Assembly (NCBI GenBank): GCA_964247135.1
Contig: CAXTTL010000155.1
Location: 1-11,610 of the forward strand
DNA from: an uncultured Deinococcales bacterium
Lineage (GTDB): Bacteria > Deinococcota > Deinococci > Deinococcales > JAAFIG01
Direction: 5' to 3'
DNA: 11,610 bases
The translations under genes and the position numbers were made by a program. Every line of letters starts with the position of its first letter. Within the stretch, counting starts at the first letter, position 1. The notes beneath the pieces are model-generated. The model did no database searches and was not told where the DNA came from. It saw only the letters and a program-made list of their open reading frames with translations. Shown here piece after piece: positions 2 through 11,610 of this stretch.

Positions 2-961
2 CAGTATCGTCTGGCAATGGTCACACAGGACAGTGTGCGCAAAGTATTGGGTGCTGACAAACCCGACCTGATTCACGTGCACTCACCTGACCCTCTGGGT
101 TGGGCTGCCATGCGTTACGCCCGTCATGAGGGTATTCCGATGGTCGCCACGTATCACACCCATTTTCCAAGCTATGCCAAGTATTATCACCTCGAGTTTG
201 CCGCGCCGTTGGTTTGGCAAATCATGCGTGCCATGTACCGCTCGAGCCAAGCGGTGATCGTGCCTTCACAGTCCACGCTCGAGGAACTTGCCGAGCACGG
301 CATCAAAAACCTGATTCACATTCCGCACGGCGTGGACACCGCCAGTTTTTCGCCCTCAAACCGTTCCGAGGCTTGGCGCTCGGGTATTCTGGGCGCGGAG
401 ACCGACCGTGTGATCGTCAGTTTTGTCTCGAGGTTGGTCTGGGAAAAAAACCCGATGGTGCTGGTGCAAGCTTGGAAGCGCTTAAACAACAAAGGACGCG
501 CCAAGCTGGTGATCGTCGGCGACGGACCTGCCCGATTAAGGCTCGAGCAACTGCTGCCCGAAGCGCACTTTACTGGCAAATTGTCGGGCGCGGCATTGTT
601 TGAAGCCTACGCCTCGAGCGATCTGTTTGTCTTTCCCTCAATCACCGAAACCTTTGGCAATGTGACCGTCGAGGCGATGGCGTCTGGTTTGCCCGCAATT
701 TGCGCGATTGCGGGCGGCGCGAGAGACATTGTGATTCCAGGTCAGAACGGTTTGCTGTTCAATGCCGACAAACCTTTAGAGCTTGCCCAAGCCATCGATG
801 AACTCGTGACCAATACAGTTTTGCGTGCTGAGATGTCCAAAAATGCCCTCGAATCGGTCAAACGCTTCAGTTGGGAAGCCACGGTTTCGGCTTACGAACG
901 CGTCTACCAAGAGGTTTTGGCGGAAAAAGCAATTGTCCCTCAACTGGCGAAAACGAGTTAA
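2..961 (+). CDS. Glycosyltransferase family 4 (GT-B fold, GT4-like/MgtA-like), 5'-truncated by the window edge
   Basis: The frame is open from position 2 (QYRLAMVTQ...), so the true start is probably upstream of the window. Motifs: PDLIHVHSP, TYHTHF, IPHGVD, FVSRLVWEKN, IVGDGP and the GT4 signature FVFPSITETFGNVTVEAMASGLP. Stop TAA at 959-961. Confidence 0.9.
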   Translation, partial: QYRLAMVTQDSVRKVLGADKPDLIHVHSPDPLGWAAMRYARHEGIPMVATYHTHFPSYAKYYHLEFAAPLVWQIMRAMYRSSQAVIVPSQSTLEELAEHGIKNLIHIPHGVDTASFSPSNRSEAWRSGILGAETDRVIVSFVSRLVWEKNPMVLVQAWKRLNNKGRAKLVIVGDGPARLRLEQLLPEAHFTGKLSGAALFEAYASSDLFVFPSITETFGNVTVEAMASGLPAICAIAGGARDIVIPGQNGLLFNADKPLELAQAIDELVTNTVLRAEMSKNALESVKRFSWEATVSAYERVYQEVLAEKAIVPQLAKTS

Positions 962-974
962 CAGTTGACTGAAC

Positions 975-1005
975 AACCCTCGAGCGAGCGCTTTTTGAGG
1001 GTTTT
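975..1005 (+). terminator. Probable intrinsic terminator of the glycosyltransferase gene
   Basis: AACCCTCGAG (975-984) pairs with TTTGAGGGTT (994-1003) using two G-U pairs, ending in a short T run. It starts 13 nt after the stop codon. Confidence 0.55.
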
Positions 1006-1059
1006 CTCGAGATCACCTTAAAACTGGTGACTGACTTCCCTTTGCCAGAACGCGCGGGG

Positions 1060-1068
1060 TGCTATAGT
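1060..1068 (+). promoter_or_regulatory. Extended -10 promoter element for secA (leaderless or very short leader)
   Basis: TGcTATAGT lies 8 nt upstream of ATG 1077. No Shine-Dalgarno is present. TTGCCA at 1042-1047 has only a 15-nt spacer. Confidence 0.6.
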
Positions 1069-1076
1069 GACTCGCC

Positions 1077-4064
1077 ATGCTGGGATTCCTAAACAAACTT
1101 TTTGATAACAACGCCAAAGACGTGCAACGACTGACCAAAGATGTGGTCGTCAAAGTCAATGCGCTCGAGGCTCAAGCCAAAGACACCCCTGATCTCGCAA
1201 ACGCTTTTGCGAAACTGCGAGAACGCGTTGCGGGCGGTGAATCGCTCGACGCCGTGCTGCCAGAAGCCTTCGCCCTCACCAGGGAGGCGGCGATACGCAC
1301 GCTCGGCAAGCGACATTACGACGTGCAATTGATCGGCGGCGCGGCGCTGCATCAAGCCCGAATTTCGGAAATGAAAACCGGTGAGGGCAAAACCCTGGTC
1401 GCCACCCTCGCGCTGGCATTGAACGCGCTCGAGGGCAAGGGCTGTCATTTGGTCACGACCAACGATTACCTCGCCAAGGTCGGCGCGGAACAGATGGGTT
1501 TGATTTACAAGGCGCTGGGTTTAACTGTTGGCGTGATCCAACAAACGCTCGACCCAAGCGCCCGCAAAGTGGCTTACCTTTGCGATATCACCTATGTCAC
1601 CAACTCCGAACTCGGCTTCGATTACCTGCGCGACAACATGGCAAATCAACCCGATCAACTGGTGCTCCGCGCCGATCACCCGCTCAACTTTGTGATTATC
1701 GACGAGGTGGACAGCATCCTGATCGACGAAGCCCGCACGCCACTGATCATTTCGGGCGCGAGCGAGAAATCGACCAGCAATTATTACCTGATGGCAAAAA
1801 TCGGCGGGATGCTCGAGAAGGGCGAACCCGTCGTTCCAGGCGATAAAACCCGCACCGTGGCGACAGGCGATTACACCATTGACGAAAAACAACGTCAGAT
1901 TCACCTGACCGAAAACGGCATTGAAAAAGCCGAGAAATTGCTGTCCATCGACGGTTTGTTCTCGACCGAGCACATGGAACTTGGGCACATGCTGCAACAA
2001 GCCATTCGCGCCCAAGAGCTGTACCACAAAGACAAAGACTACATCGTTGACGAAAACAATGAAGTCGTGATTGTCGATGAATTCACGGGACGCCTCATGC
2101 CAGGTCGTCGTTACGGCGAAGGCTTGCACCAAGCCATTGAAGCCAAAGAGAACGTCAAAATTGCTGGTGAAAACCAAACCCTGGCGACCATCACCTACCA
2201 AAATTTCTTCAAACTCTACAACAAAATTTCGGGCATGACCGGCACCGCCAAAACCGAGGAAAAAGAATTTGTCGAACTGTACGGCGCAGATGTTTTGGTG
2301 ATTCCAACCAATTTGCCGATGATCCGTAAAGACAACCAAGACGTGGTGTACCGCTCTGAGCTTGGCAAGTTTAAAGCCGTGATCGAAGAGATTGTGGTGC
2401 GCTCCGAAGCCGCGCAGCCCGTGTTGGTCGGTACAATCAGCATCGAAAAGTCAGAATTCTTGTCCAAGATGCTCTCCGAACCCAACCGTTACGTGCAATT
2501 TATCGAAGCCACCGCAGGGCGACTGCTCTCGCAACTGGTCAAAGCGGACGCCAAAACCATCGAGAATGCCAACAAAATCCTCTCGAATGCTGGTGCGTTA
2601 ACGCCAGAAAAACTGACCGACCTCAAACCCATGCTGCCCAAGAATGCACTCGAGACTTTTTCCTACCTCGAGAGCGAGGTCAAAACCTTGCAGGCGCTGC
2701 GCAAAGGCATCAAGCATCAGGTCTTGAACGCCAAGCAACACCAGTTTGAAGCCGACATCATCGCCCAGGCTGGTCGTTCAGGTTCGATCACCATTTCCAC
2801 CAACATGGCAGGGCGCGGCACGGACATTCAACTCGGTGGAAACGCCGAATTTGCCGCTTACGCCCTGCTCGAGAAAAAAGGTTTGAGCCGTTACGATGAC
2901 CACATCGAACTGTTCGTTGCCGCGTGTTTGCGCGACGACGACGCCACCATCAACAAATTGCGCCCTGAACTGCCAAAAGTCAGCGATGAGGATGTCAAAA
3001 TCATTCGGGACACTCGAGAAGCCTTCAAACAAGATTTTGTCAAGGTCAAAGCCGCCGGTGGCTTGCATATTATCGGCACAGAACGCCACGAATCGCGCCG
3101 CATCGACAACCAATTGCGCGGACGTTCGGGGCGTCAGGGCGATCCAGGCTCGAGCCGTTATTATGTCTCGTTTGAAGACGATTTGATGCGCTTGTTCGCC
3201 AACGAAAGCGTCATTAAGATGCTGGATCGTCTGGGTATGGACGACACCCAACCCATCGAAGCTCAAATGGTCACCTCGAGCATCGAACGCGCCCAAAAAC
3301 GCGTCGAAGACCGCAACTTTGGCATCCGCAAGCAACTCCTCGAGTTTGACAACGTCATGAGCAAACAACGCGAAGTCGTGTACGCCCAGCGCCGCGAAGT
3401 GCTCCTGGGCAACGATGAGGGCGTGGTGGACATGGTTGAGGGCATGATCGGCGATTACACCGAAGGGCAAGCCGACATGCACCTCTCGGGCGACAGCGAC
3501 CAATGGAACCTCGAGCAACTCCGAGCCAGTCTGGTCGATGCCTGTCCAGCGTTTGAAAACTTTGATTTTGAGGCATTGCGCGGTCACAAGATCGATGACG
3601 CTCGAGAACAACTTGTCAGTTTCATTGCCGATGCTTACGATACCCGCGAGAAAGAACTTGGCGCTCCGCTCTTGCGGTCGCTCGAGCGTTACGTGGTCTT
3701 GCAGGTCGTCGATCAATTCTGGAAAGAGCACCTTCACGCGATGGACGTGCTGCGAAGCGGTATTTTCCTTCGCGCTTACGGGCAAAAAGACCCGTTTGTC
3801 GAGTACAAGTTTGAAGCCACCAAACTCTTCAGCGAACTGACCGAAACCATCAAAGCCGAAATCACCAAGTTTATTTTCCGCTTGCAAGTGAATTTTGAAG
3901 CCCCACCTCAACCCCAAGTTTCAGACGACTCGAGCAACGACGGCGAATCTGAGCCGCAACCAATGAACAACCCGTTCATGCGTCGCAACACCCAAACCAC
4001 GCGCATTCCAAAACTCTCGAGACAAGACCGCCGGAAACTCGAGCGGGACAACAAGAAAAAGTAA
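1077..4064 (+). CDS. secA: Preprotein translocase ATPase subunit SecA (995 aa)
   Basis: EMKTGEGKTL Walker A, ELGFDYLRDNM, IIDEVDSILIDEARTPLIISG, SGMTGTA, STNMAGRGTDI, GTERHESRRIDNQLRGRSGRQGDPG, YGQKDPFVEYK. Confidence 0.99.
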   Translation: MLGFLNKLFDNNAKDVQRLTKDVVVKVNALEAQAKDTPDLANAFAKLRERVAGGESLDAVLPEAFALTREAAIRTLGKRHYDVQLIGGAALHQARISEMKTGEGKTLVATLALALNALEGKGCHLVTTNDYLAKVGAEQMGLIYKALGLTVGVIQQTLDPSARKVAYLCDITYVTNSELGFDYLRDNMANQPDQLVLRADHPLNFVIIDEVDSILIDEARTPLIISGASEKSTSNYYLMAKIGGMLEKGEPVVPGDKTRTVATGDYTIDEKQRQIHLTENGIEKAEKLLSIDGLFSTEHMELGHMLQQAIRAQELYHKDKDYIVDENNEVVIVDEFTGRLMPGRRYGEGLHQAIEAKENVKIAGENQTLATITYQNFFKLYNKISGMTGTAKTEEKEFVELYGADVLVIPTNLPMIRKDNQDVVYRSELGKFKAVIEEIVVRSEAAQPVLVGTISIEKSEFLSKMLSEPNRYVQFIEATAGRLLSQLVKADAKTIENANKILSNAGALTPEKLTDLKPMLPKNALETFSYLESEVKTLQALRKGIKHQVLNAKQHQFEADIIAQAGRSGSITISTNMAGRGTDIQLGGNAEFAAYALLEKKGLSRYDDHIELFVAACLRDDDATINKLRPELPKVSDEDVKIIRDTREAFKQDFVKVKAAGGLHIIGTERHESRRIDNQLRGRSGRQGDPGSSRYYVSFEDDLMRLFANESVIKMLDRLGMDDTQPIEAQMVTSSIERAQKRVEDRNFGIRKQLLEFDNVMSKQREVVYAQRREVLLGNDEGVVDMVEGMIGDYTEGQADMHLSGDSDQWNLEQLRASLVDACPAFENFDFEALRGHKIDDAREQLVSFIADAYDTREKELGAPLLRSLERYVVLQVVDQFWKEHLHAMDVLRSGIFLRAYGQKDPFVEYKFEATKLFSELTETIKAEITKFIFRLQVNFEAPPQPQVSDDSSNDGESEPQPMNNPFMRRNTQTTRIPKLSRQDRRKLERDNKKK

Positions 4065-4074
4065 AGAAAGTTTG

Positions 4075-4111
4075 AAGGCTCGAGGTCGAAGGTGAACCTC
4101 GAGCCTTTTTT
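4075..4111 (+). terminator. Rho-independent terminator of secA
   Basis: Perfect 12-bp inverted repeat AAGGCTCGAGGT (4075-4086) / ACCTCGAGCCTT (4096-4107) with a 9-nt loop. The T run extends to 4111. It starts 10 nt after the secA stop. Confidence 0.9.
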
Positions 4112-4167
4112 GTAACAAAGTTTTTGATTTGGTGACACTCGAGTTCTATGGTTTTGTCCACGTTTTG

Positions 4168-4887
4168 CTAAGGGTAAACCTCAAATGCACAGGTATAGTC
4201 TTGTGAGTCAATCAGAATAATCTTGTCAAACGAGTGATTAATACTTGGCTTCAATGTGTCTCGGTGCAGTTCATAAAGTTCCAAATCCATGCTGTTGTCG
4301 ATATGATTTGGAAGCACAAGCCACCACTTTGAATACTTGTCTCGGTACTTTTCGATTTTGAGTTTCTTTTCCGCTATACAGACTTTTAGATTTCTCTCAA
4401 TCTCGCTTATTATGTCGCCACCCTCATCGTAGTCAATGCTTGAAATATATTGAAAAAAACTTCCTAGGTCTTTTCCCGCAGGATCAAGTTCAAGTTCGAT
4501 GTTTCCGATATTGATAGTTTGGGGAGTTCGAGATGAACTGTGCATGAAAGTCGTTAGTTCTGATTTAATTTCGGAAATAAGTGACTTTTGCGAAAGACCT
4601 ATTGGTCGTTGATAATCAATCGAGACTAACCAACTTTCACCTTGCAAAGATGAGCCTATCAAAGGCAGGTGTTTTTTCAAGCTAGCTTGCAATGGAATAG
4701 AAAACTCTTCCAAACCATTCTTTGAGCCATCGGGTCTTTCGTGGTTCTGATTGAGCCTGCGTACCTCAATACCAATTGTTCCACCTAATGAGAAATCAGG
4801 AGGAATATTTCCATCTGGCTCAAAAACCACAGCACCTTGGTCAAGACCTACCAGGTACTTCTGGACAAGCATCTCTGATTCGTCCAT
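4168..4887 (-). CDS. Hypothetical protein (239 aa), putative PD-(D/E)XK nuclease-like, probably horizontally acquired
   Basis: Long ORF in AT-rich DNA (32-45% GC in sampled 60-nt lines). The N-terminus has E...EPDGNIPPDF...GIEVRRL, resembling a PD-x(n)-E-x-K/R catalytic arrangement. The ORF is well supported; the function is inference. Confidence 0.7.
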   Translation of the reverse strand: MDESEMLVQKYLVGLDQGAVVFEPDGNIPPDFSLGGTIGIEVRRLNQNHERPDGSKNGLEEFSIPLQASLKKHLPLIGSSLQGESWLVSIDYQRPIGLSQKSLISEIKSELTTFMHSSSRTPQTINIGNIELELDPAGKDLGSFFQYISSIDYDEGGDIISEIERNLKVCIAEKKLKIEKYRDKYSKWWLVLPNHIDNSMDLELYELHRDTLKPSINHSFDKIILIDSQDYTCAFEVYP

Positions 4888-5047
4888 TGAAGTCTAACCG
4901 CAAATCTTACCGCAGGCGCGGAATAAATTCGTCGAAGAAAGCATTGAGTTAAGGTATTTTTTTGTGTTCAAGGATTGGTTCATTTCAGCACCTCACTTAA
5001 TTTTCCATGATATACCGTTATTGACTAAACTGAAACTTGCTCGAGCC

Positions 5048-6136
5048 TCAAACGTTAAACAAGAAATGCACCACATCCCCGTCCTTCATCACGTATTCTT
5101 TGCCTTCGGTTCGCACCCAACCTTTGGCTTTGGCGTTCACATTGCTTCCAGCCTCAACCAATTTGTCCCACTCCACCACTTCGGCGCGAATAAACCCGCG
5201 TTCGATGTCGCTGTGAATTTCGCCTGCGGCTTGCGGTGCTTTTGTGCCTTCTTTGACCGTCCAGGCTCGGACTTCTTTTTCGCCGCTGGTAATCATGGTG
5301 ATTAACCCAAGTGCCTTGTAACCCACGTGCACCAGTCGCTCGAGTCCTGATTCGGTCAAACCCAGTTCCTCGAGGAAAACCTTGGCGTCTTCGTCGCTTA
5401 AATCGGCGATTTCGCCCTCAATTTGGGCGCTGATTTTGACCACGGCAGCGCCCTCTTTGGCGGCGAGTTCACGGACTTTTTTGACGTGTTCGTTGTCTTC
5501 GGTCAAACTGGCTTCGTCCACGTTGGTCACGTAAATCACGGGTTTGCTGGTAATCAAGCTCAGTTCCTTGGGAACTTCAATGCCCGTTAGACGCGCTGGA
5601 ATACCCTTAGAGAGCGGCTCGAGCAGTGCCTCGACCACAGCAAGCAACTCCGCATCGTCTTTGCTGTTCTTGGCGGTTTTACGCAGTCTGTCCACCCGCC
5701 GCTCGAGGGTTGCCAAATCTGAGAGTGCCAGCTCGAGGTTGATGGTTTCGATGTCGTCCAGCGGGTCAATGCGTCCTGCCACGTGAATGATGTCGTTGTT
5801 TTCAAAGCAGCGAACCACGTGAGCGATGGCGTTGACCTCGCGGATGTTGGCGAGGAACTGATTGCCCAAACCCTCGCCTTTGCTCGCGCCTTTGACAAGC
5901 CCCGCAATGTCCACAAATTCGACAGCCGTCGGAATAATTGGCGGCACACGATCACCTTTGGTAAAAACTTTAGATAGTGCCTCGAGTCGGTGGTCTGGCA
6001 GCGGTACAACGCCAATGTTTTTGTCAATCGTGGCGAACGGATAATTCGCCGCCTCGACCCCAGCTTTGGTAATGGCGTTAAACAGCGTTGATTTTCCGAC
6101 GTTTGGCAGTCCGACAATTCCAATTCCCAATCCCAT
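5048..6136 (-). CDS. ychF: Redox-regulated, ribosome-binding ATPase YchF (Obg family), 362 aa
   Basis: GIVGLPNVGKSTLFNA, ANYPFATI, FVDIAGLVKGASKGEGLGNQFLANIRE, YVTNVDE, and TGS C-terminus GEIHSDIERGFIRAEV...EGKEYVMKDGDVVHFLFNV. Start set at ATG 6136, preceded by SD GGAGGT (6141-6146). Confidence 0.97.
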   Translation of the reverse strand: MGLGIGIVGLPNVGKSTLFNAITKAGVEAANYPFATIDKNIGVVPLPDHRLEALSKVFTKGDRVPPIIPTAVEFVDIAGLVKGASKGEGLGNQFLANIREVNAIAHVVRCFENNDIIHVAGRIDPLDDIETINLELALSDLATLERRVDRLRKTAKNSKDDAELLAVVEALLEPLSKGIPARLTGIEVPKELSLITSKPVIYVTNVDEASLTEDNEHVKKVRELAAKEGAAVVKISAQIEGEIADLSDEDAKVFLEELGLTESGLERLVHVGYKALGLITMITSGEKEVRAWTVKEGTKAPQAAGEIHSDIERGFIRAEVVEWDKLVEAGSNVNAKAKGWVRTEGKEYVMKDGDVVHFLFNV

Positions 6137-6268
6137 AAGAACCTCCAACTCGAGATTCCCTCGAGAAATTTCTAGTTTGTGCTTGAGGCTTGTCGCTCGA
6201 GCATCAGAGTATACCGTCTGGTGAGCCTGATTACAGCTTGTGACGTAACGAAAGTCTAGAATGTGGTC

Positions 6269-6550
6269 ATGAAAGCCATTTGGAACGATCAAGTCATCGC
6301 CGAGAGCAACGATACCGTCGTGGTTGAAGGCAACCATTACTTCCCAGAATCCAGCGTCAAAGCCGAATTCTTGCGTCCCTCGAGCACGCACAGCACTTGC
6401 CCGTGGAAGGGTGTTGCCAGTTATCACTCGCTCGAGGTGGGCGGGAAAATGAATGCGGACGCGGCGTGGTTTTATCCTGCGCCAAAAGACGCCGCCAAGG
6501 AAATCACGGGGCGGATTGCCTTTTGGAAGGGCGTTCAGGTCAGCGCTTGA
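6269..6550 (+). CDS. DUF427 family protein (93 aa)
   Basis: MKAIWNDQVIAES...VEGNHYFP...STCPWKGVASY...NADAAWFYPAPK...RIAFWKGV is the typical DUF427 pattern. TAGAAT (6257-6262) lies 6 nt before ATG 6269, supporting this start over GTG 6263. Confidence 0.92.
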   Translation: MKAIWNDQVIAESNDTVVVEGNHYFPESSVKAEFLRPSSTHSTCPWKGVASYHSLEVGGKMNADAAWFYPAPKDAAKEITGRIAFWKGVQVSA

Positions 6551-6601
6551 ACTCGAGATTCGTTTAGGGCGCTACGAAGATTCCTGCGTTAAACTCGAGC
6601 C

Positions 6602-7201
6602 ATGAATGTTGGCGTCCTGATTTTTCATGAGGTGTCCGAGTTTGAAGTGGCTGGAATCATGGGCGTTTTTGGTGCGGCTCGGGCTTTTTTGCCTATGCCT
6701 GAAGTCCTCGAAGGTGCTGAACCGCCTCCAAATCCGCTCGAGGTGTTCACACTATCCAAAACCCGTGCCAGCATTCGTGGGGCTGGCGGTTTGGTCATGA
6801 CGCCGACGTATGCTTTCGCTGGGGCGCCCGAACCCGACATTTTGGTTGTGCCTGGCGGTTTGGGTGCGGAAAAAATATCGAAAGACCTGCAAACCAAAGA
6901 GTATTTGCGTACTCAGGCGGCTCGAGTCAGGTTTTTGATTTCAATCTCGGGTGGGGCGTTGATTTTGGGCGAGGCGAATTTGCTGACCGATTTGGATGTC
7001 ACGACCACGCCAGCGCTGTCGGAGACGATCTGGAAGTACAATCCTGGAAATGTTTTTGAGACTCGAGTCAGCAAAAACCCGAATGGGCGTTGGTTTGCCG
7101 CGACTGGTTTGGCGGCAATGGAATTGGCGCTCGAGCTGGTATCACTCGAGTTTGATGCCGAAATTGCCAGCAAGACGGGCAAGAATTTGGGTTTGTCCTA
7201 A
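6602..7201 (+). CDS. DJ-1/PfpI (class I glutamine amidotransferase-like) family protein lacking the nucleophile Cys
   Basis: N-terminal VGVLIF, GGLVMTP, PDILVVPGG, nucleophile-elbow region ISISGGALILGEANLL, C-terminal GLAAMELALELV. TAAACT (6590-6595) lies 6 nt upstream of the ATG. Confidence 0.85.
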   Translation: MNVGVLIFHEVSEFEVAGIMGVFGAARAFLPMPEVLEGAEPPPNPLEVFTLSKTRASIRGAGGLVMTPTYAFAGAPEPDILVVPGGLGAEKISKDLQTKEYLRTQAARVRFLISISGGALILGEANLLTDLDVTTTPALSETIWKYNPGNVFETRVSKNPNGRWFAATGLAAMELALELVSLEFDAEIASKTGKNLGLS

Positions 7202-8007
7202 CCTTCTATGGTGGTGGCTTTAGAGAGTGCCGTCAGAATGCTCAAGGCATCAGGGTAACGGTTGGCAGGGTTTTTCTCGAGCAACCGCAGCGCCACCTGG
7301 TCGAGCACGTGCGAGTGTCGCCCCTCGCGCAGGCTCGAGGGGTCTGGAGGCAGTTGCGACAGGTGCGCCCGCATGACCTCTTGCGGTTCACCCTCGAAGG
7401 GGTGCTGACCGGTGATCCCCCAGTAGAGCATCACGCCAGCCGAGTACAGGTCGGCGGCAGGGGTCAACGGCAAACCGCGCACGGCTTCTGGGGAAAGGTA
7501 CGCCAGCGTTCCAGGGGTCAGGCGGTCACGAAAGACCTCGTTGCTGGGTCCGCTCAGGTCAAAATCGAGTAATTTTGCTTCCAGGCTGCCAGGTTTGATG
7601 CCGGGTGAAACCACGATGTTGTCTGGTTTCAAATCGCGGTGAACAAGACCTTTTTCGTGCATGACCGACAAACCCTCGAGCACCTGAACAAAAACCTCGA
7701 GAAACTGCTTTAAGCCGTGATACGCCACCCATTCACTAAAACGCTGCCCAGGGGCGAAGGGCATCAAGGTTCCAGGTTGCCCCTCGAGGGTGATGCGCTC
7801 CAGAACTGGATTGAGGTTTTTATGATGCAAATCCTTGCCGACCAGAAATTCGCGGTCGGCTCGGGCTGCCATTTCGTTGGGGAACAGTTTCACGGCGTAA
7901 GGCGTGCCGAACAAATCGAATGCCAAATACACGACGCTGCTCGCCCCGCGAGCGATAGGACGCACGATGGTGTACTTGTCGAGCAAGACCGTTCCAGCAA
8001 TCGCCAT
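7198..8007 (-). CDS. Hanks-type serine/threonine protein kinase, catalytic domain only (269 aa)
   Basis: IARGASSVVY (P-loop), YAVKLF, VHRDLKPDNI, LLDFDLS, GTLAYLSPE, ADLYSAGVMLY, TGQHPF, KNPANRY. TATCAT (8015-8020, minus) lies 7 nt before the ATG. Confidence 0.92.
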   Translation of the reverse strand: MAIAGTVLLDKYTIVRPIARGASSVVYLAFDLFGTPYAVKLFPNEMAARADREFLVGKDLHHKNLNPVLERITLEGQPGTLMPFAPGQRFSEWVAYHGLKQFLEVFVQVLEGLSVMHEKGLVHRDLKPDNIVVSPGIKPGSLEAKLLDFDLSGPSNEVFRDRLTPGTLAYLSPEAVRGLPLTPAADLYSAGVMLYWGITGQHPFEGEPQEVMRAHLSQLPPDPSSLREGRHSHVLDQVALRLLEKNPANRYPDALSILTALSKATTIEG

Positions 8008-8055
8008 TGGTTCGATGATAACGCATTCTCGAGCGCGGCGTGGTTGTTTCCAGGT

Positions 8056-9018
8056 TTAGCTCGAAGGTTGAAGGCTCACGGCAGCCGTTTGCGGGGAGCG
8101 AACCACGATCAAAACACCAACCAACAAGACCAAACCGCCCAGAATAATTCCAAACCCAGGGATTTCTTTAAACAAGAATATGGCGCCCAGGGCACTGCCA
8201 ATCGGCTCGAGCAAGACCACCGAGGCGACCACGGCAGGATTGAGGTATTTGACCGCCCAGTTGACGCTGGTGTGACCGATCAGTTGCGGGATCAAACCGA
8301 GCAGCAGTATCCAGAAATACGTCTCGAGCGGATACTGGAATGGTTGCAAGCCAAAGACAAATGGCATGGGAACAAGCACCAGCGCCGCAGTGCCGTAGGC
8401 GATGCCCGCGTAACTGCGCAGGCTTAAACCCAAATGCTGGCTGTTGCGTCCGAGCAAATAATAGGCAGCCCCCGCAAACGCGCCGAGCAGCGCCAAGCCG
8501 TCGCCCAAAAGCGGGTTTTGAAAGCCGCCCGTGTTGCTGGCGTCGCCAATGCCAATCAGAATGCCGCCCGCGAAAGTCACGAGCAGACCCACAAGCTCCA
8601 TTTGGCTGGGTTTTTGCTTTAACACCAGCCAGGCGTAAAGACTGAGCCACAGCGGGTTTGAGGTCACGATGGCGGTGCTGGCGGCAATTGAGGTCAAACC
8701 CAGGCTGACAATCCAGAACGTGAAATGCGCTGCCAGGGCAATGCCCGCAAAAACGCTCAGCCAAATTGCTTTTTGGAAGACTCGAGGCTCGCGGGATTTT
8801 TGTTCTTGGATTAAAGTTTGAAAGCCCAATGGTGTGGCTATCAGTGCAGCCACCAGGATTCTGCCCGCCGCGATCACCACGCCAAAGGCGGCGTCGCTCG
8901 AGAGTGAGGCATTGCGTGAGAGCCTGATCAAAATGGCGGCGAACGACATTGCCAGCAAACCCATTAAAAGCACCGAATTGATTTTGAAACGACTTGGTTG
9001 ACCCGAGGTTGAGTTCAC
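8056..9018 (-). CDS. DMT superfamily (EamA) transporter, about 10 TM helices
   Basis: Hydrophobic two-repeat protein with SFAAILIR, ALAAHFTFWIVSLGLTSIAAST, GDGLALLGA, PQLIGHTSVNWAVKYL, LLEPIGS. Start placed at GTG 9018 because TGtTAGACT lies 7 nt upstream; GTG 9024 is the alternative. Confidence 0.9.
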   Translation of the reverse strand: MNSTSGQPSRFKINSVLLMGLLAMSFAAILIRLSRNASLSSDAAFGVVIAAGRILVAALIATPLGFQTLIQEQKSREPRVFQKAIWLSVFAGIALAAHFTFWIVSLGLTSIAASTAIVTSNPLWLSLYAWLVLKQKPSQMELVGLLVTFAGGILIGIGDASNTGGFQNPLLGDGLALLGAFAGAAYYLLGRNSQHLGLSLRSYAGIAYGTAALVLVPMPFVFGLQPFQYPLETYFWILLLGLIPQLIGHTSVNWAVKYLNPAVVASVVLLEPIGSALGAIFLFKEIPGFGIILGGLVLLVGVLIVVRSPQTAAVSLQPSS

Positions 9019-9025
9019 AACCACG

Positions 9026-9045
9026 AGTCTAACAGCCTTTATACT
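9026..9045. promoter_or_regulatory. Back-to-back -10 boxes for the divergent DMT and AlaX genes
   Basis: Minus-strand TGtTAGACT (hexamer 9026-9031) and plus-strand TATACT (9040-9045), each 7-8 nt from a start codon. No SD motifs. Confidence 0.6.
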
Positions 9046-9053
9046 GGCAAGAC

Positions 9054-10241
9054 ATGACGCAGACCATTCAAAAACTTTACCGCCAGGATTCTTACCTCAA
9101 AGAATTTCGTGCCACCGTGATTGGAACTGAATTGATTGCTGGCAACACCGAGGTCGTGCTCGATCAAACCGTGTTTTACCCCACCGCAGGGGGTCAACCC
9201 TACGACACCGGATTTTTAAATCAAGCCAGGGTTCTCGAGGTGCGCGAGTCAAAAGGGGACAGTCAGATTGTGCACGTGCTCGAGGGTCAGGTCGCGTTTG
9301 AAATTGGTAGCGATGTGATTGGCAAAATTGATTGGGCGCGGCGTTTTGATCACATGCAGCAACACACGGGCGAGCACATGCTCGGGCAAGCTTTTTTTCG
9401 GCAAAATGCCCATGTGATTGCCGTCAACATGGAACGTGGTATTTGCACGCTCGATCTCGAGCACAGCATCACCGAAGACATGGCGCTCGAGGCGGAACGG
9501 ATTTGCAACAAAGCAATTTGGGCGAATCATGAGATCACTTCCTATGAAGTCCACGATTCCGAAATCGCTAGCGTCCCGTTGCGCCGAACTGCAAAAGTTT
9601 CGGGCATGATTCGCGTGGTGCAAATTGGCGATTATGACTACAGCGCTTGCGGCGGCACACATTTGCGTTCGAGCAGCGAGGTTGGCATGGTCAAAATCCT
9701 CAAACTCGAGCGGATTAAATCTGGAGCGACCCGCGTGTACTTTATTTGCGGCTCGAGGTGTTTAACGGATTACGGTTTCAAGCACGAATTTGTCAGCAGT
9801 CTCGGGCTTAAATTCTCAACCGCACCCGAGAATGTTCCAGCCCGTACCGAAGCGCTGCTCGAGGAACTCAACTCAAGCAAAAAAGAACGCTTGAGCCTCA
9901 GAGCAAACTACGCCGATTTACTGGCGGCAAGTCTGCTCGAAAAGTCTTTTCCAGTGGTGGTTCACACACTTTCCGACCCGAGTTTGTTGGCTGATGTCGC
10001 AAAAGCCATTGCGGCTCGAGAGGGTGCAATTGGGATTTTGGGGGCAGTTGACGGCGCTCGAGCTTTGCTGGCGGTGGGTTGCGGTGTCGGCTCGAGCAAT
10101 AACGCCAACGATGTTTTAAAGCTTGGTTTGCCGTTTGTTGAGGGCAAGGGTGGCGGCAAACCCGACATGGCGCAGGGCAGTGGAACAAACCCAAGCGGCT
10201 TGGCGGCGGCATTGGAGGCAATGGCAAAATCGTTGCGTTAA
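9054..10241 (+). CDS. Free-standing alanyl-tRNA editing protein (AlaX-L type) with C-terminal DHHA1/C-Ala domain (395 aa)
   Basis: KLYRQDSYLKEF, VLDQTVFYPTAGGQPYDTG, zinc-binding HMQQHTGEH (HxxxH) and SACGGTH (CxxxH), C-terminal GKGGGKPDMAQG. No aminoacylation domain. Confidence 0.92.
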   Translation: MTQTIQKLYRQDSYLKEFRATVIGTELIAGNTEVVLDQTVFYPTAGGQPYDTGFLNQARVLEVRESKGDSQIVHVLEGQVAFEIGSDVIGKIDWARRFDHMQQHTGEHMLGQAFFRQNAHVIAVNMERGICTLDLEHSITEDMALEAERICNKAIWANHEITSYEVHDSEIASVPLRRTAKVSGMIRVVQIGDYDYSACGGTHLRSSSEVGMVKILKLERIKSGATRVYFICGSRCLTDYGFKHEFVSSLGLKFSTAPENVPARTEALLEELNSSKKERLSLRANYADLLAASLLEKSFPVVVHTLSDPSLLADVAKAIAAREGAIGILGAVDGARALLAVGCGVGSSNNANDVLKLGLPFVEGKGGGKPDMAQGSGTNPSGLAAALEAMAKSLR

Positions 10242-10582
10242 AGATTTTGTGGTGGTTCTGGAGGTAAGGCTTTTTTCTTTCTGGGTCCAAAACTGGCAAC
10301 GACCGCGCCAATAAAACCAGCCGCCAGTGCCGTTAAACCGAACAACCGAATTGCAGCCAAAACAAAATTCACGCCTTCGCCAAGGTCTTCAAAATTTAAC
10401 ACCGCACTCAGTTGCCGTAATCCAAGAATGGTGACGATTGCCCCGAGCAGACCAAACAGCAAGCCCCACAAGCCAACCTTCCAACCCCGAATCAAGCGCC
10501 CCAGGAGCTTGCGCAGCAACCAAGAAACGCTGAACGAACCAATAAAAACCAACACTTCCAAAAGAATCAATTGACCGCTCAT
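10238..10582 (-). CDS. Hypothetical membrane protein (114 aa, about 3 TM segments)
   Basis: Three hydrophobic stretches with basic flanks (LLRKLLGRLIR, PRKKK) and a Pro-rich tail. It fills the gap after AlaX, and TATTAT (10588-10593, minus) lies 5 nt before the ATG. Confidence 0.65.
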   Translation of the reverse strand: MSGQLILLEVLVFIGSFSVSWLLRKLLGRLIRGWKVGLWGLLFGLLGAIVTILGLRQLSAVLNFEDLGEGVNFVLAAIRLFGLTALAAGFIGAVVASFGPRKKKALPPEPPQNL

Positions 10583-10805
10583 GATTCATAATACGTGGTT
10601 TTGTCAATTAACGTTCCAAGTTTTTGCTTTTGAAGTCTTAAGGTTGGTGAATTGAATCGAGGTGGCGTTGCCCAAGGAGCCTTGAGAATGCGTGGCATTA
10701 TTTCCAGTTCAACTGCTGCCGGCGGCTCGAGAGGCTGTGCTTCACGGCTCGAAACAACGCATTTTGCATTCGGATACAGGGCGCTTTCAATGTTGTGGGT
10801 AATGC

Positions 10806-10833
10806 TTGACCAACAACTTTGAAGTGTTAAACT
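10806..10833 (+). promoter_or_regulatory. Sigma70-type promoter for the sugar ABC operon
   Basis: TTGACC (10806-10811), 16-nt spacer, TAAACT (10828-10833) preceded by an extended TG. A strong SD GGAGGAGG (10882-10889) follows downstream. Confidence 0.6.
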
Positions 10834-10893
10834 CGAGCGGAAGCACAGATCGTGCAATACAATCCATCAGGGTCAACCTATGGAGGAGGACGT

Positions 10894-11610
10894 ATGAAAA
10901 CAAAAACATTCGCAACACTCGCAGCGTTTGGTTTGGCGGCGGGGGCATTGGCGTTATCGGCAGCCACAGCCCAATCCAAAACCACGATCACCGTGTTTTT
11001 TGGTTCGACCTTTAGACCAGATTTGATGCGTCCGATTTTTGATCGTTTTGAACAAGCCAACCCAGACATTCAAGTCAAACAAGAACTGGGCGGCGCGACC
11101 TCAGAATTGCAAAACCAGTACCTGACCACGGTGCTGTCTGCCAAAGACTCGAGCTTGGATGCGTTTTTGATCGACGTGATTCGCCCAGCCCAATTCCAAT
11201 CGCAAGGTTGGCTCGAGCCGATGGACAAGTATTTGGGCGGTTCTCAAAAAGCCCAAGAATTCTTGGCTGGTTACTTGCCAGGTCCGATCAATGCCGACAA
11301 GATCAACTCTCAAATTTGGGCGCTTCCTGCCACCACCGACACGCAGTTTTTGTACTACCGCAAAGATTTGCTCGCCAAGTACAACCTCAAAGTGCCCAAG
11401 ACTTGGGAAGAAGTGATTAGCCAAGCCCAAACCATCACCAAGGGCGAGAACAACCCGCAGTTGCAAGGTTTGAACTTCCAGGGCGCACCCATCGAGGGCG
11501 CGGTCTGCACTTTCTTGCAACCATTCTGGGCGGCAGGTGGCGAAGTGCTGCAAAATGGCAAAGTCAACGTCAATTCCGAAGCCGGACGCAAAGCTTTAAA
11601 CTTGTGGGTT
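10894..11610 (+). CDS. Sugar ABC transporter substrate-binding protein (family 1, trehalose/maltose-like), 3'-truncated
   Basis: Not in the ORF track because it has no stop in the window. Manual translation: MKTKTFATLAAFGLAAGALALSAATAQSKTTITVFFG (signal peptide)...FEQANPDIQVK...LDAFLIDVIRPAQF...GWLEPMD...WALPATTDTQFLYYRKDLLAKYNLKVPKTWEE...QGAPIEGAVCTFL. SD GGAGGAGG precedes the ATG. Confidence 0.92.
   Translation, partial: MKTKTFATLAAFGLAAGALALSAATAQSKTTITVFFGSTFRPDLMRPIFDRFEQANPDIQVKQELGGATSELQNQYLTTVLSAKDSSLDAFLIDVIRPAQFQSQGWLEPMDKYLGGSQKAQEFLAGYLPGPINADKINSQIWALPATTDTQFLYYRKDLLAKYNLKVPKTWEEVISQAQTITKGENNPQLQGLNFQGAPIEGAVCTFLQPFWAAGGEVLQNGKVNVNSEAGRKALNLWV

Follow-up and report, generated by a model that had tools for sequence, protein, structure and literature searches.

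Why should one six-base word, CTCGAG, recur throughout a piece of bacterial DNA whose gene content is ordinary housekeeping? The question is raised by an 11,610-nucleotide stretch of an uncultured Deinococcales bacterium (contig CAXTTL010000155.1 of assembly GCA_964247135.1), which in its whole length is called the window below. A first reading made from its letters alone (the sequence-only reading) had noted about 70 copies of CTCGAG where about three were expected, and had likened the word to the cyanobacterial highly iterated palindrome HIP1. We counted 70 exact copies, while dinucleotide-preserving shuffles of the window gave a mean of 2.44 (standard deviation 1.49, maximum 7) and none of 200 shuffles reached 70. 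The copies are placed as follows:

Positions 191 to 11217, both strands: dispersed CTCGAG, 58 copies in coding DNA (in all three frames) and 12 in intergenic DNA.

The frames given in that reading for single sites were checked against the open reading frames (ORFs) and are correct: sites 241, 427 and 3149 are read as xxC TCG AGx, and sites 3013 and 3601 as xCT CGA Gxx. Our answer to the question is that CTCGAG is almost certainly a real and maintained HIP-type word in the window's Deinococcales family. The core of the sequence-only reading, a HIP1-like word with a genome-wide process that creates or maintains it, is supported by frame independence and by the density of the word in non-coding DNA, and further by conservation at orthologous positions, ongoing gain and loss, and spread throughout the family.

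The excess is not confined to the contig but is genome-wide and family-wide. The assembly to which the window belongs (G000; 5.09 Mb in 386 contigs, the longest of 116 kb, 52.7% G+C, 84% complete) contains 33,925 copies, or 6.66 per kb, which is 24.7 times the zero-order expectation; the sequence-only reading had put the excess in the window at about 20-fold. CTCGAG is the commonest of all hexamers in G000, and the hexamers ranked next overlap it. Sixty-two percent of the 54,610 TCGA tetramers sit within CTCGAG, the rest being near the expected number. The density is even, only two 5-kb segments of the genome having eight or fewer copies, and the spacing between copies is near-exponential (coefficient of variation 0.96) apart from a three-base ripple, which is due to the frame preference of the word, and a deficit below approximately 18 bp. 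A spacing of six would require the mirror word GAGCTC and never occurs, as the 5.09 Mb of G000 contain no copy of it; every family locus contains zero or one.

The one-letter variants of CTCGAG are found at 0.08–1.7 times expectation and are 15–50 times rarer than CTCGAG, the CTAG-containing variant being rarer still; the commonest are the three transition variants, that is, transitions are not depleted. The flanks show a weak symmetric preference, with G at −1 in 39% of copies, C at +1 in 38%, and A at −3 and T at +3 in 37%, and no base exceeds 43% at any flanking position. As the same symmetric flanks are seen at the 5,090 non-coding sites (A−3 42%, G−1 35%, C+1 36%, T+3 42.5%), the preference is a property of the DNA. 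CTCGAG with its flanks, GCTCGAGC, has 4,225 copies in G000 (44 times expectation). The word acts as an exact hexamer of duplex DNA and is not a property of protein, RNA or a longer repeat.

To separate the word from codon usage, we used an ORF map of G000 built by a greedy longest-ORF rule (at least 100 amino acids; 4,479 ORFs), which is an approximation standing in for a gene finder. By this map 28,294 of the 33,925 copies (83%) are coding. Synonymous codons were then moved within each gene in 10 runs, so that proteins, dipeptides and per-gene codon usage were kept; this null is already inflated by the codons that CTCGAG itself contributes. The observed counts exceed it in every frame:

Frame CTC GAG: 17,236 observed, 3,065 in the synonymous shuffle, 5.6 times.
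Frame xCT CGA Gxx: 4,514 observed, 335 in the synonymous shuffle, 13.5 times.
Frame xxC TCG AGx: 6,544 observed, 579 in the synonymous shuffle, 11.3 times.
All coding frames: 28,294 observed, 3,979 in the synonymous shuffle, 7.1 times.

A null preserving both codons and dipeptides, which had been suggested as a check, thus leaves the excess in place, and a shuffle of whole codons in the G000 ORFs gives 1,641 copies. A maximal-order Markov model gives an excess of 1.24 times only; it was set aside as uninformative because the pentamers on which it is built are themselves produced by CTCGAG.

The frame CTC GAG accounts for 61% of coding sites, and the footprint of the word on the predicted proteome is found in the dipeptide Leu-Glu, which is the most over-represented of all dipeptides in G000 (22,430 vs 9,345 expected, 2.40 times), while the reverse dipeptide Glu-Leu is at 1.02. 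Outside Leu-Glu pairs CTC makes up 15% of leucine codons and GAG 33% of glutamate codons; this usage predicts that 4.9% of Leu-Glu pairs would be encoded as CTCGAG, whereas 76.8% are. Similarly, the codon preceding TCG-AGx ends in C in 92% of cases, compared with 33.5% of codons overall. In the ORFs of the loci that we fetched, the Leu-Glu excess is 0.86 in Bacillaceae, 1.05 in Deinococcus, 1.34 in Trueperaceae, 1.58 in Meiothermus and Calidithermus and 1.98 in the window's family, with Glu-Leu at about one in all groups. The Leu-Glu excess rises with CTCGAG across groups, and protein sequences have been altered by the word. Ser-Ser was considered as a footprint of the frame xxC TCG AGx and dropped, since it is enriched 1.6 times in Deinococcus too.

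In non-coding DNA the word is about as dense as in genes (7.48 and 6.53 copies per kb genome-wide, respectively). In the window we counted 12 copies in 898 intergenic bases (13.4 per kb), near the 14 in 0.95 kb reported by the sequence-only reading, and 58 coding copies (5.4 per kb); given the similar densities genome-wide, this threefold intergenic excess is local, and that part of the earlier claim does not extend to the genome. Convergent, tandem and divergent spacers contain 9.0, 8.8 and 7.4 copies per kb, respectively. There is no strong tie of CTCGAG to promoters or terminators, despite two copies in a hairpin behind secA in the window (see below).

Conservation of individual sites was determined by comparison with a genome of the same genus (G005), of which 390 kb were aligned to G000, yielding 273 kb of ungapped columns with 86.6% identity in the 107 blocks kept. 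Of 1,961 CTCGAG copies of G000 in the alignment, 1,537 (78.4%) are also CTCGAG in G005, compared with 46.6% for all hexamers, and the word ranks first in conservation among the 1,035 hexamers with at least 100 occurrences. In the reverse direction, 87.2% of the 1,763 copies of G005 are shared with G000; the unshared copies number 424 in G000 and 226 in G005. Non-coding copies are conserved in 188 of 252 cases (74.6%), against 43.9% of all non-coding hexamers. The same holds for synonymous positions within codons: when the next codon is GAG, CTC has a different third base in the other genome in 6.1% of cases (61 of 999), compared with 32.8% (168 of 512) before other codons starting with G and 37.5% (193 of 514) before all remaining codons; for GAG, a third-base difference is seen in 5.9% (59 of 993) after CTC and in 25.4% (126 of 497) after other codons ending in C. 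Positional conservation among orthologous sites, another check proposed at the outset, is therefore far above background, synonymous and non-coding positions included.

One-letter variants do not share this protection. In the sister genome 906 of 2,335 (38.8%) are unchanged, which is below the 46.6% of the average hexamer, and 357 (15.3%) are CTCGAG there, with values of 22–31% for the transition variants. At CTCGAG sites that differ between the two genomes, transitions are about equally common at all three positions of the half-site. The hexamers best conserved after CTCGAG all contain CATG (ATCATG, TCATGA, CATGAC, GCATGA and CATGCG; 73–76%); this may reflect only the single codon for methionine, or may indicate a second maintained or methylated word.

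The turnover of sites was followed in one gene of the window, secA, whose position is given here together with those of the features next to it:

Positions 1077 to 4064, plus strand: secA, with Pfam SecA domains and 16 CTCGAG copies.
Positions 4074 to 4108, plus strand: terminator-like hairpin 3' of secA, each arm around one CTCGAG (4079 and 4098), followed by a T-run.
Positions 4168 to 4887, minus strand: ORF of 239 amino acids with zero CTCGAG; the 4001–5000 bin has 41% G+C.
Positions 5048 to 6427, minus strand: gene of a YchF-type GTPase (Pfam), with CTCGAG copies within this minus-strand gene.

The nearest secA loci in a public genome collection belong to uncultured Deinococcales metagenome-assembled genomes (MAGs) with 97% and approximately 73–76% amino-acid identity, which bears out the guess of Deinococcota made in the sequence-only reading. 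A codon alignment of 15 rows (the window and 14 loci of its family), to which 15 of the 16 window sites could be mapped, has 38 columns with CTCGAG in at least one row; five columns have it in 11–15 rows and 12 in a single row. Of the window's own sites, some fall in columns with the word in 12–15 of the 15 rows and others are lineage-specific, site 3275, for example, being CTCGAG only in the window's row. Read from these presence patterns and from the pairwise differences, which are not polarised by an outgroup, CTCGAG sites appear to be both retained and still gained and lost.

The hairpin behind secA folds with −22.6 kcal/mol (z = −3.96), and none of 200 shuffles folds as well. Genome-wide, a run of four T or four A lies beside 826 of 3,329 neighbouring CTCGAG pairs that are 8–30 nt apart, a count for which no control set was compared. 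Ten copies of CTCGAG lie within the 66 tRNAs predicted in G000 by aragorn, some of which look doubtful; the 3' acceptor-stem region of tRNA-Glu and tRNA-Val accounts for several of them, and in tRNA-Leu(GAG) one copy spans the anticodon loop. The longest ORF of the YchF gene has 459 amino acids, yet the GTPase domain begins at residue 102, and the true start is probably about 100 codons further downstream; a later start would widen the spacer 6428–6601 and shift four more CTCGAG into non-coding DNA. Besides secA and ychF, Pfam identifies in the window genes for a GT4 glycosyltransferase, a DJ-1/PfpI protein, a Ser/Thr kinase, an EamA transporter, an AlaX-like editing protein and a solute-binding protein.

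The word was traced across Deinococcota genomes, as had also been proposed. It is old enough to be found throughout the family and to be graded across the phylum, while related lineages are without it. Seventeen loci titled as Deinococcales or Deinococcota MAGs have CTCGAG at 14–31 times expectation at a G+C content of 45–60%. All 18 sampled genomes of the window's family, which represent five genera, contain 838–4,448 copies of GCTCGAGC and 0–165 of a reversed control word. Counting GCTCGAGC against the reversed control in 150 further genomes of the phylum gave a graded picture:

Genus g7 (the largest), 77 genomes: 6–199 copies, the reversed control about the same.
Genus g9, 27 genomes: 2–56 copies, the reversed control mostly higher (word depleted).
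Genera g13, g18 and g19, 20 genomes: 737–2,379 copies, the reversed control 78–622.
Genera g6, g12 and g27, four genomes: 1,642–3,475 copies, the reversed control 12–272.

Genus g9, from the Meiothermus family and with genomes of about 2.2 Mb, is probably Thermus-like. A g13 genome (G117) matches a Thermaceae MAG contig whose secA is 91–93% identical to that of Meiothermus granaticius. Loci of four cultured strains (M. granaticius NBRC 107808, M. rufus DSM 22234, M. hypogaeus DSM 23238 and Calidithermus chliarophilus DSM 9957) contain 2.2–3.8 CTCGAG per kb, which is 6.4–10.9 times expectation and 6–8.5 times the mean one-letter variant, with GAGCTC at 0.9–3.6 times; a milder form of the trait thus exists in cultured strains. 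In Trueperaceae loci CTCGAG is at 4–6 times expectation, and GAGCTC is raised too.

In a quick secA tree the window and the 14 family loci form one clade (100 in the Shimodaira–Hasegawa-like approximate likelihood ratio test, SH-aLRT). Outside this clade a word-rich MAG locus (L022, 19 times expectation) pairs with a word-poor one (L038, 1.4 times), which suggests more than one gain of the word, or losses. A scan of the genome collection for clustered CTCGAG is uninformative on other phyla: among the matches listed, high-G+C genomes with a codon-driven excess dominate, and the sole standout is one Deinococcales MAG locus (42 times). Of at least 120 matching stretches in a scan of viral contigs, the 80 loci examined are mostly from high-G+C contigs with frequent GAGCTC, and none of them resembles the window's family.

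Recently acquired foreign genes are without the word. Among 1,980 ORFs of at least 900 nt in G000, 15 are site-free, compared with a Poisson expectation of 1.2, and eight of the 15 have a G+C content below 0.40. In the window no CTCGAG lies between 4143 and 5040, the region that includes the ORF 4168–4887. A Pfam family search of its 239-residue product found none, and its best named relatives, hypothetical proteins from proteobacterial MAGs (Gallionellaceae and Methylobacter), share 55–59% identity with it; the ORF is probably a recent horizontal acquisition. An N4/N6 methylase gene on contig C189 of G000 has zero CTCGAG as well. The first 20,000 nt of contig C1 (C1:1-20000) have no counterpart in five genomes of the same genus and yet carry 116 CTCGAG, the normal density; either they came from a word-carrying donor, through exchange within the word-rich clade, or they are long-resident DNA lost by the others.

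What, then, keeps the word in place? The sequence-only reading had named biased repair, a signal for uptake or recombination, and a site for a nucleoid protein, and the present data do not decide between them. We lean towards biased transmission (molecular drive) with a rough probability of 0.4; both the existence of a factor and its mode of action are things that we infer. A symmetric, probably dimeric factor would read CTCGAG and its weak flanks (A−3, G−1, C+1, T+3). Whenever an allele with the word is paired with one lacking it, as may happen in heteroduplexes that form between copies of the genome or with DNA arriving from kin, the factor would tip repair or recombination in favour of CTCGAG. 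Sites would accumulate where the protein code tolerates them and would then resist decay, and newly acquired foreign genes would still be without them. We lean this way because each of the approximately 34,000 sites can have only a negligible functional share, yet amino acids have been displaced; because one-letter variants are unprotected; because coding and non-coding densities are alike; and because foreign genes start without sites.

Several observations weigh against molecular drive. Conservation and equilibrium are predicted alike by drive and by weak per-site selection and do not separate the two, and no candidate factor was found. The spacing is near random overall, and gaps of 300–500 bp number 3,586 against an exponential expectation of 4,436, a deficit that would follow from a spacing-dependent function too. 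The genera of this phylum known to be transformable are Deinococcus and Thermus; as 19 of 27 Deinococcus or Deinococcaceae loci have zero or one CTCGAG where 4–8 are expected, and the probably Thermus-like g9 is depleted, competence alone does not produce the word, and a hexamer is a poor discriminator as an uptake tag. Finally, transition variants are not depleted and no Vsr homologue was found in G000, which argues against repair of deaminated methyl-cytosine as the mechanism of drive. ComEC, present in 40 of 41 relatives (17 of the 18 family genomes and every word-poor relative), is compatible with a route through uptake and recombination and permits it, but is no argument for it, since the word-poor genera have ComEC too. 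A wider form of the drive reading, which we regard as doubtful, is that the Deinococcota HIP evolved independently of cyanobacteria and without a dedicated methyltransferase, and that a core factor biasing recombination or repair rewrote approximately 13,000 dipeptides. If this were true, the gradient among genera would let the factor, and perhaps a general logic of HIPs, be found through comparative genomics and in strains that can be cultured.

Per-site selection, which would make CTCGAG the word bound by an abundant protein of chromosome architecture or of the nucleoid, or by some other genome-wide reader, and would keep each copy for its share in a chromosome-level function, seems to us rather unlikely, although it survives best among the alternatives. 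It would account for the conservation of orthologous sites in coding, non-coding and synonymous positions, the symmetric flanks suggest a dimeric binder, and both the even density and the somewhat reduced number of mid-length gaps would be in line with it. Against it, some 34,000 sites would each make a tiny contribution while amino acids have been changed on a large scale, and the overall spacing is near-exponential. One-letter variants receive no protection, unlike the HIP1 one-offs in the passages of PMC5861425 that report on them, and no candidate protein was identified.

Methylation-directed creation, following Elhai's model for HIP1, is a weaker candidate still, and we consider it improbable. 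An orphan methyltransferase would mark CTCGAG, and methyl-directed mismatch repair would convert near-matches to it. In cyanobacteria, according to the passages of PMC4390886 on methyltransferases, a frequent HIP is accompanied by a methyltransferase of that specificity, and the preference for G−1 and C+1 in G000 would put GC around a methylated outer C, as the model requires. G000 also encodes several DNA methylases (members of PF01555, PF00145, PF02086 and PF02384/PF07669 in Pfam scans), several of them of N4/N6 types.

The genomes do not bear out a common enzyme, however. Pfam scans of five further, near-complete CTCGAG-rich genomes (G005, G009, G011, G019 and G027), combined with all-against-all BLASTP and with Pfam and NCBIfam typing, found no methylase orthologue common to these and G000 among PF01555, PF00145, PF02086 and PF07669/PF02384. 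Cross-genome identities of methylases are mostly 22–50%, compared with 57–97% for secA, and most of the PF07669 hits of approximately 500 amino acids are HsdM subunits of type I systems. Three G000 methylases traced through 40 relatives are patchy, occurring in five, nine and six of the 18 family genomes. G011, a single contig of 5.09 Mb, lacks PF01555 genes altogether, and the one C5 methylase gene that it does have (0 CTCGAG, 42% G+C) looks recently acquired; in G027 all three methylase genes are site-poor (0–1.1 CTCGAG per kb). A search for Vsr homologues in G000 (84% complete) gave none. The co-occurrence with a methyltransferase or Vsr, which HIP1 would lead one to expect and which the sequence-only reading had proposed to look for, was thus not seen. 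The survey has its bounds, as specificity cannot be read from sequence, the family genomes are 57–94% complete, and methylases of unrecognised families are possible; within these bounds, the word seems to do without a conserved methyltransferase dedicated to it.

Systems of the XhoI type, which recognise the same hexamer, do circulate in the phylum, a point in favour of methylation-directed creation. XhoI-family nucleases (PF04555) occur in four of 151 phylum genomes, each adjoining a methylase, and were not found in G000, G009, G011, G019 or G027. In three genomes (G021, G033 and G141) the nuclease lies beside an N4/N6 methylase of 340–354 amino acids, and these methylases are 70–73% identical to one another. 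In the fourth (G031, locus L506, C1:1089001-1103000) the pair of genes takes up the ORFs at 4829–6580 and 6595–7226; the nuclease is broken by one TGA and one TAG, whereas the adjacent 583-residue methylase of Eco57I/TaqI_C type is intact. Here a restriction system is on its way to becoming an orphan methylase, and CTCGAG in this genome is at about six times expectation. No close relative of the G031 methylase was found in G000 or among the methylase hits from the other five rich genomes.

In g9, the genus depleted in GCTCGAGC, 19 of 27 genomes have homologues of the XhoI-linked N4/N6 methylase (62–70% identical), but such homologues were found in none of the 18 family genomes, none of the 15 genomes of the Meiothermus genus g13 and none of five from g18 and g19. 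In g9 a conserved ORF without a Pfam family follows the methylase and is possibly its nuclease. The one CTCGAG-rich genome with such a homologue, 62–63% identical, is G027, which lies outside the family. Recognition of CTCGAG by the g9 and G027 enzymes is suggested by their identity to the XhoI-linked ones; on this footing, the recognisable CTCGAG-type methylase of the phylum would track depletion of the word and not its enrichment, G027 excepted.

Three side observations bear on restriction and methylation in these genomes. In g9 loci L511–L518 (3.8 kb, high G+C), which surround the methylase of the XhoI-linked type, TCGA has 2–6 copies, nearly all inside CTCGAG, which suggests that TCGA is avoided except within CTCGAG. 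In G000 many 6-bp palindromes besides GAGCTC are nearly absent: GGGCCC has one copy, CGGCCG three, AGGCCT four, CGTACG five, GGATCC seven, CCGCGG 11, CAGCTG 15 and GCATGC 17, where approximately 1,100–1,700 of each are expected, and among tetramers GGCC is at 0.016 and CTAG at 0.07 times expectation; this avoidance, far beyond the usual, suggests a long history with many restriction systems. The starts of G000 contigs C4 and C207 are overlapping pieces, approximately 89% identical, of one N4/N6 (SPPY) methylase gene, to be explained either by a duplicate that was collapsed or by differences between strains within the bin.

Two further readings can be dismissed. That the word follows from base composition, codon usage or the amino-acid content of proteins has next to no credibility: the predominance of the frame CTC GAG, the low Markov ratio and the 4–13-fold CTCGAG excess seen at high G+C in Trueperaceae loci and in genomes of other phyla (a codon effect, as GAGCTC is raised there too) would speak for it, but it is refuted by the synonymous shuffle and by the Leu-Glu codon data (77% of pairs CTCGAG), and the word is as dense in non-coding DNA, GAGCTC is absent from G000 and the trait holds at 45–60% G+C. 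An artefact or longer repeat (contamination by XhoI-site linkers or adapters, mis-binning, or an element resembling a repetitive extragenic palindrome, REP, or a miniature inverted-repeat transposable element, MITE) is just as far-fetched: CTCGAG is a common cloning site and two window copies form a hairpin, but the sites lie in frame in conserved genes, at positions common to independently assembled MAGs of several record series and a single-contig 5.09-Mb chromosome, with near-exponential spacing, and loci of cultured Meiothermus and Calidithermus show a weaker excess. The REP/MITE type in particular was rejected on the 83% of copies that are coding and on the weak flanks.

The word has practical consequences for work on these genomes. 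It skews codon-pair and dipeptide statistics and can mislead composition-based binning, detection of horizontal gene transfer and gene-finding, while its absence marks recently acquired genes. Across genera it ranges from depleted to 30-fold in excess, and cultured genera are among them (Meiothermus, Calidithermus), which provides both a comparative series and experimental hosts; Meiothermus ruber DSM 1279 is in use as a benchmark strain for methylation.

Among known systems, very-short-patch repair by Dcm/Vsr at CCWGG in E. coli has a small effect on word frequency, with T-containing variants depleted. The likeness lies in a repair system that is tied to a palindromic methylation site and shifts the frequencies of the word and of its deamination products; CTCGAG differs in its 25-fold effect, in that transitions are the commonest one-letter forms, and in that no Vsr homologue was found in G000. 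XhoI/PaeR7I restriction-modification shares the hexamer, and a nuclease of this family with its methylase is present in 4 of 151 phylum genomes; such sites are normally avoided, whereas here CTCGAG is in excess, no XhoI-family nuclease was found in the five rich genomes searched, and the linked methylase was found in none of the 18 family genomes.

DNA uptake sequences (DUS) of Neisseriaceae and uptake signal sequences (USS) of Pasteurellaceae are non-palindromic words of 9–12 nt that occur about once per kb and have a known or inferred receptor; their excess is explained by molecular drive and not by per-site selection. Like them, CTCGAG is in genome-wide excess in a phylum with naturally transformable members, has coding copies at a cost to proteins, is absent from recently acquired DNA and has paired copies that can form terminator stems (window 4074–4108). 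Unlike them, it is a 6-nt palindrome with 6.7 copies per kb and a weak symmetric extension, so that neither its size nor its density is that of an uptake sequence, and Deinococcus loci are mostly without it and the probably Thermus-like g9 is depleted, although these are the transformable genera.

The closest parallel is HIP1. In open-access literature, supplements lying outside our scope, we found no published report of a CTCGAG excess in Deinococcota or Meiothermus, and the main texts of PMC4390886 and PMC13756078 mention neither 'Deinococc' nor 'CTCGAG'. A 2026 preprint on hot-spring epigenomes has CTCGAG among the methylated motifs common to one host-phage group, with no phylum named in the passages concerned. 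HIP1 (GCGATCGC) and the alternate cyanobacterial HIPs, as they are described in the relevant passages of PMC4390886 (Elhai 2015) and PMC5861425, are likewise short G+C-rich palindromes over-represented at least 15-fold. In both cases copies are dispersed singly, in coding DNA in all frames and in non-coding DNA; orthologous positions are conserved beyond background, within-codon controls and non-coding DNA included; and the word is lineage-wide, with related lineages lacking it and a weak palindromic extension of the core. From comparable conservation evidence Xu, Lawrence and Durand (2018) concluded, in that part of PMC5861425, that HIP1 is kept site by site through selection for a function at the level of the chromosome. 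Cyanobacterial HIPs are further described as periodic along the chromosome at the 10–90 kb scale. A bioRxiv preprint (10.1101/2024.09.10.611283), in the portion drawn on here, reports an increase of natural transformation by HIP1, while Rodriguez-Cruz et al. (2026), in the corresponding portion of PMC13756078, propose it as an uptake signal and profile orthogroup presence against it with phylogenetic correction.

The differences are as marked. CTCGAG is a different word, a hexamer, in another phylum, and its 6.7 copies per kb compare with 0.3–2.7 per kb given for HIP1 in the density figures of PMC4390886. Its one-letter variants are unprotected (38.8% vs 46.6%) and show no bias to outer positions, whereas one-letter variants of HIP1 are better conserved than the controls in the relevant section of PMC5861425 and biased to outer positions in that of Elhai's work (PMC4390886). 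No cognate methyltransferase common to the CTCGAG-rich genomes was found in the families scanned, and the effect on the proteome is large (Leu-Glu 2.4 times). HIP1 has been known for some thirty years, and its mechanism is still argued between biased repair, selection on chromosome structure and a role in transformation. CTCGAG adds to it a second case of the HIP type, in another phylum, several-fold denser, with a measurable footprint in the proteome and with no obvious cognate methyltransferase.

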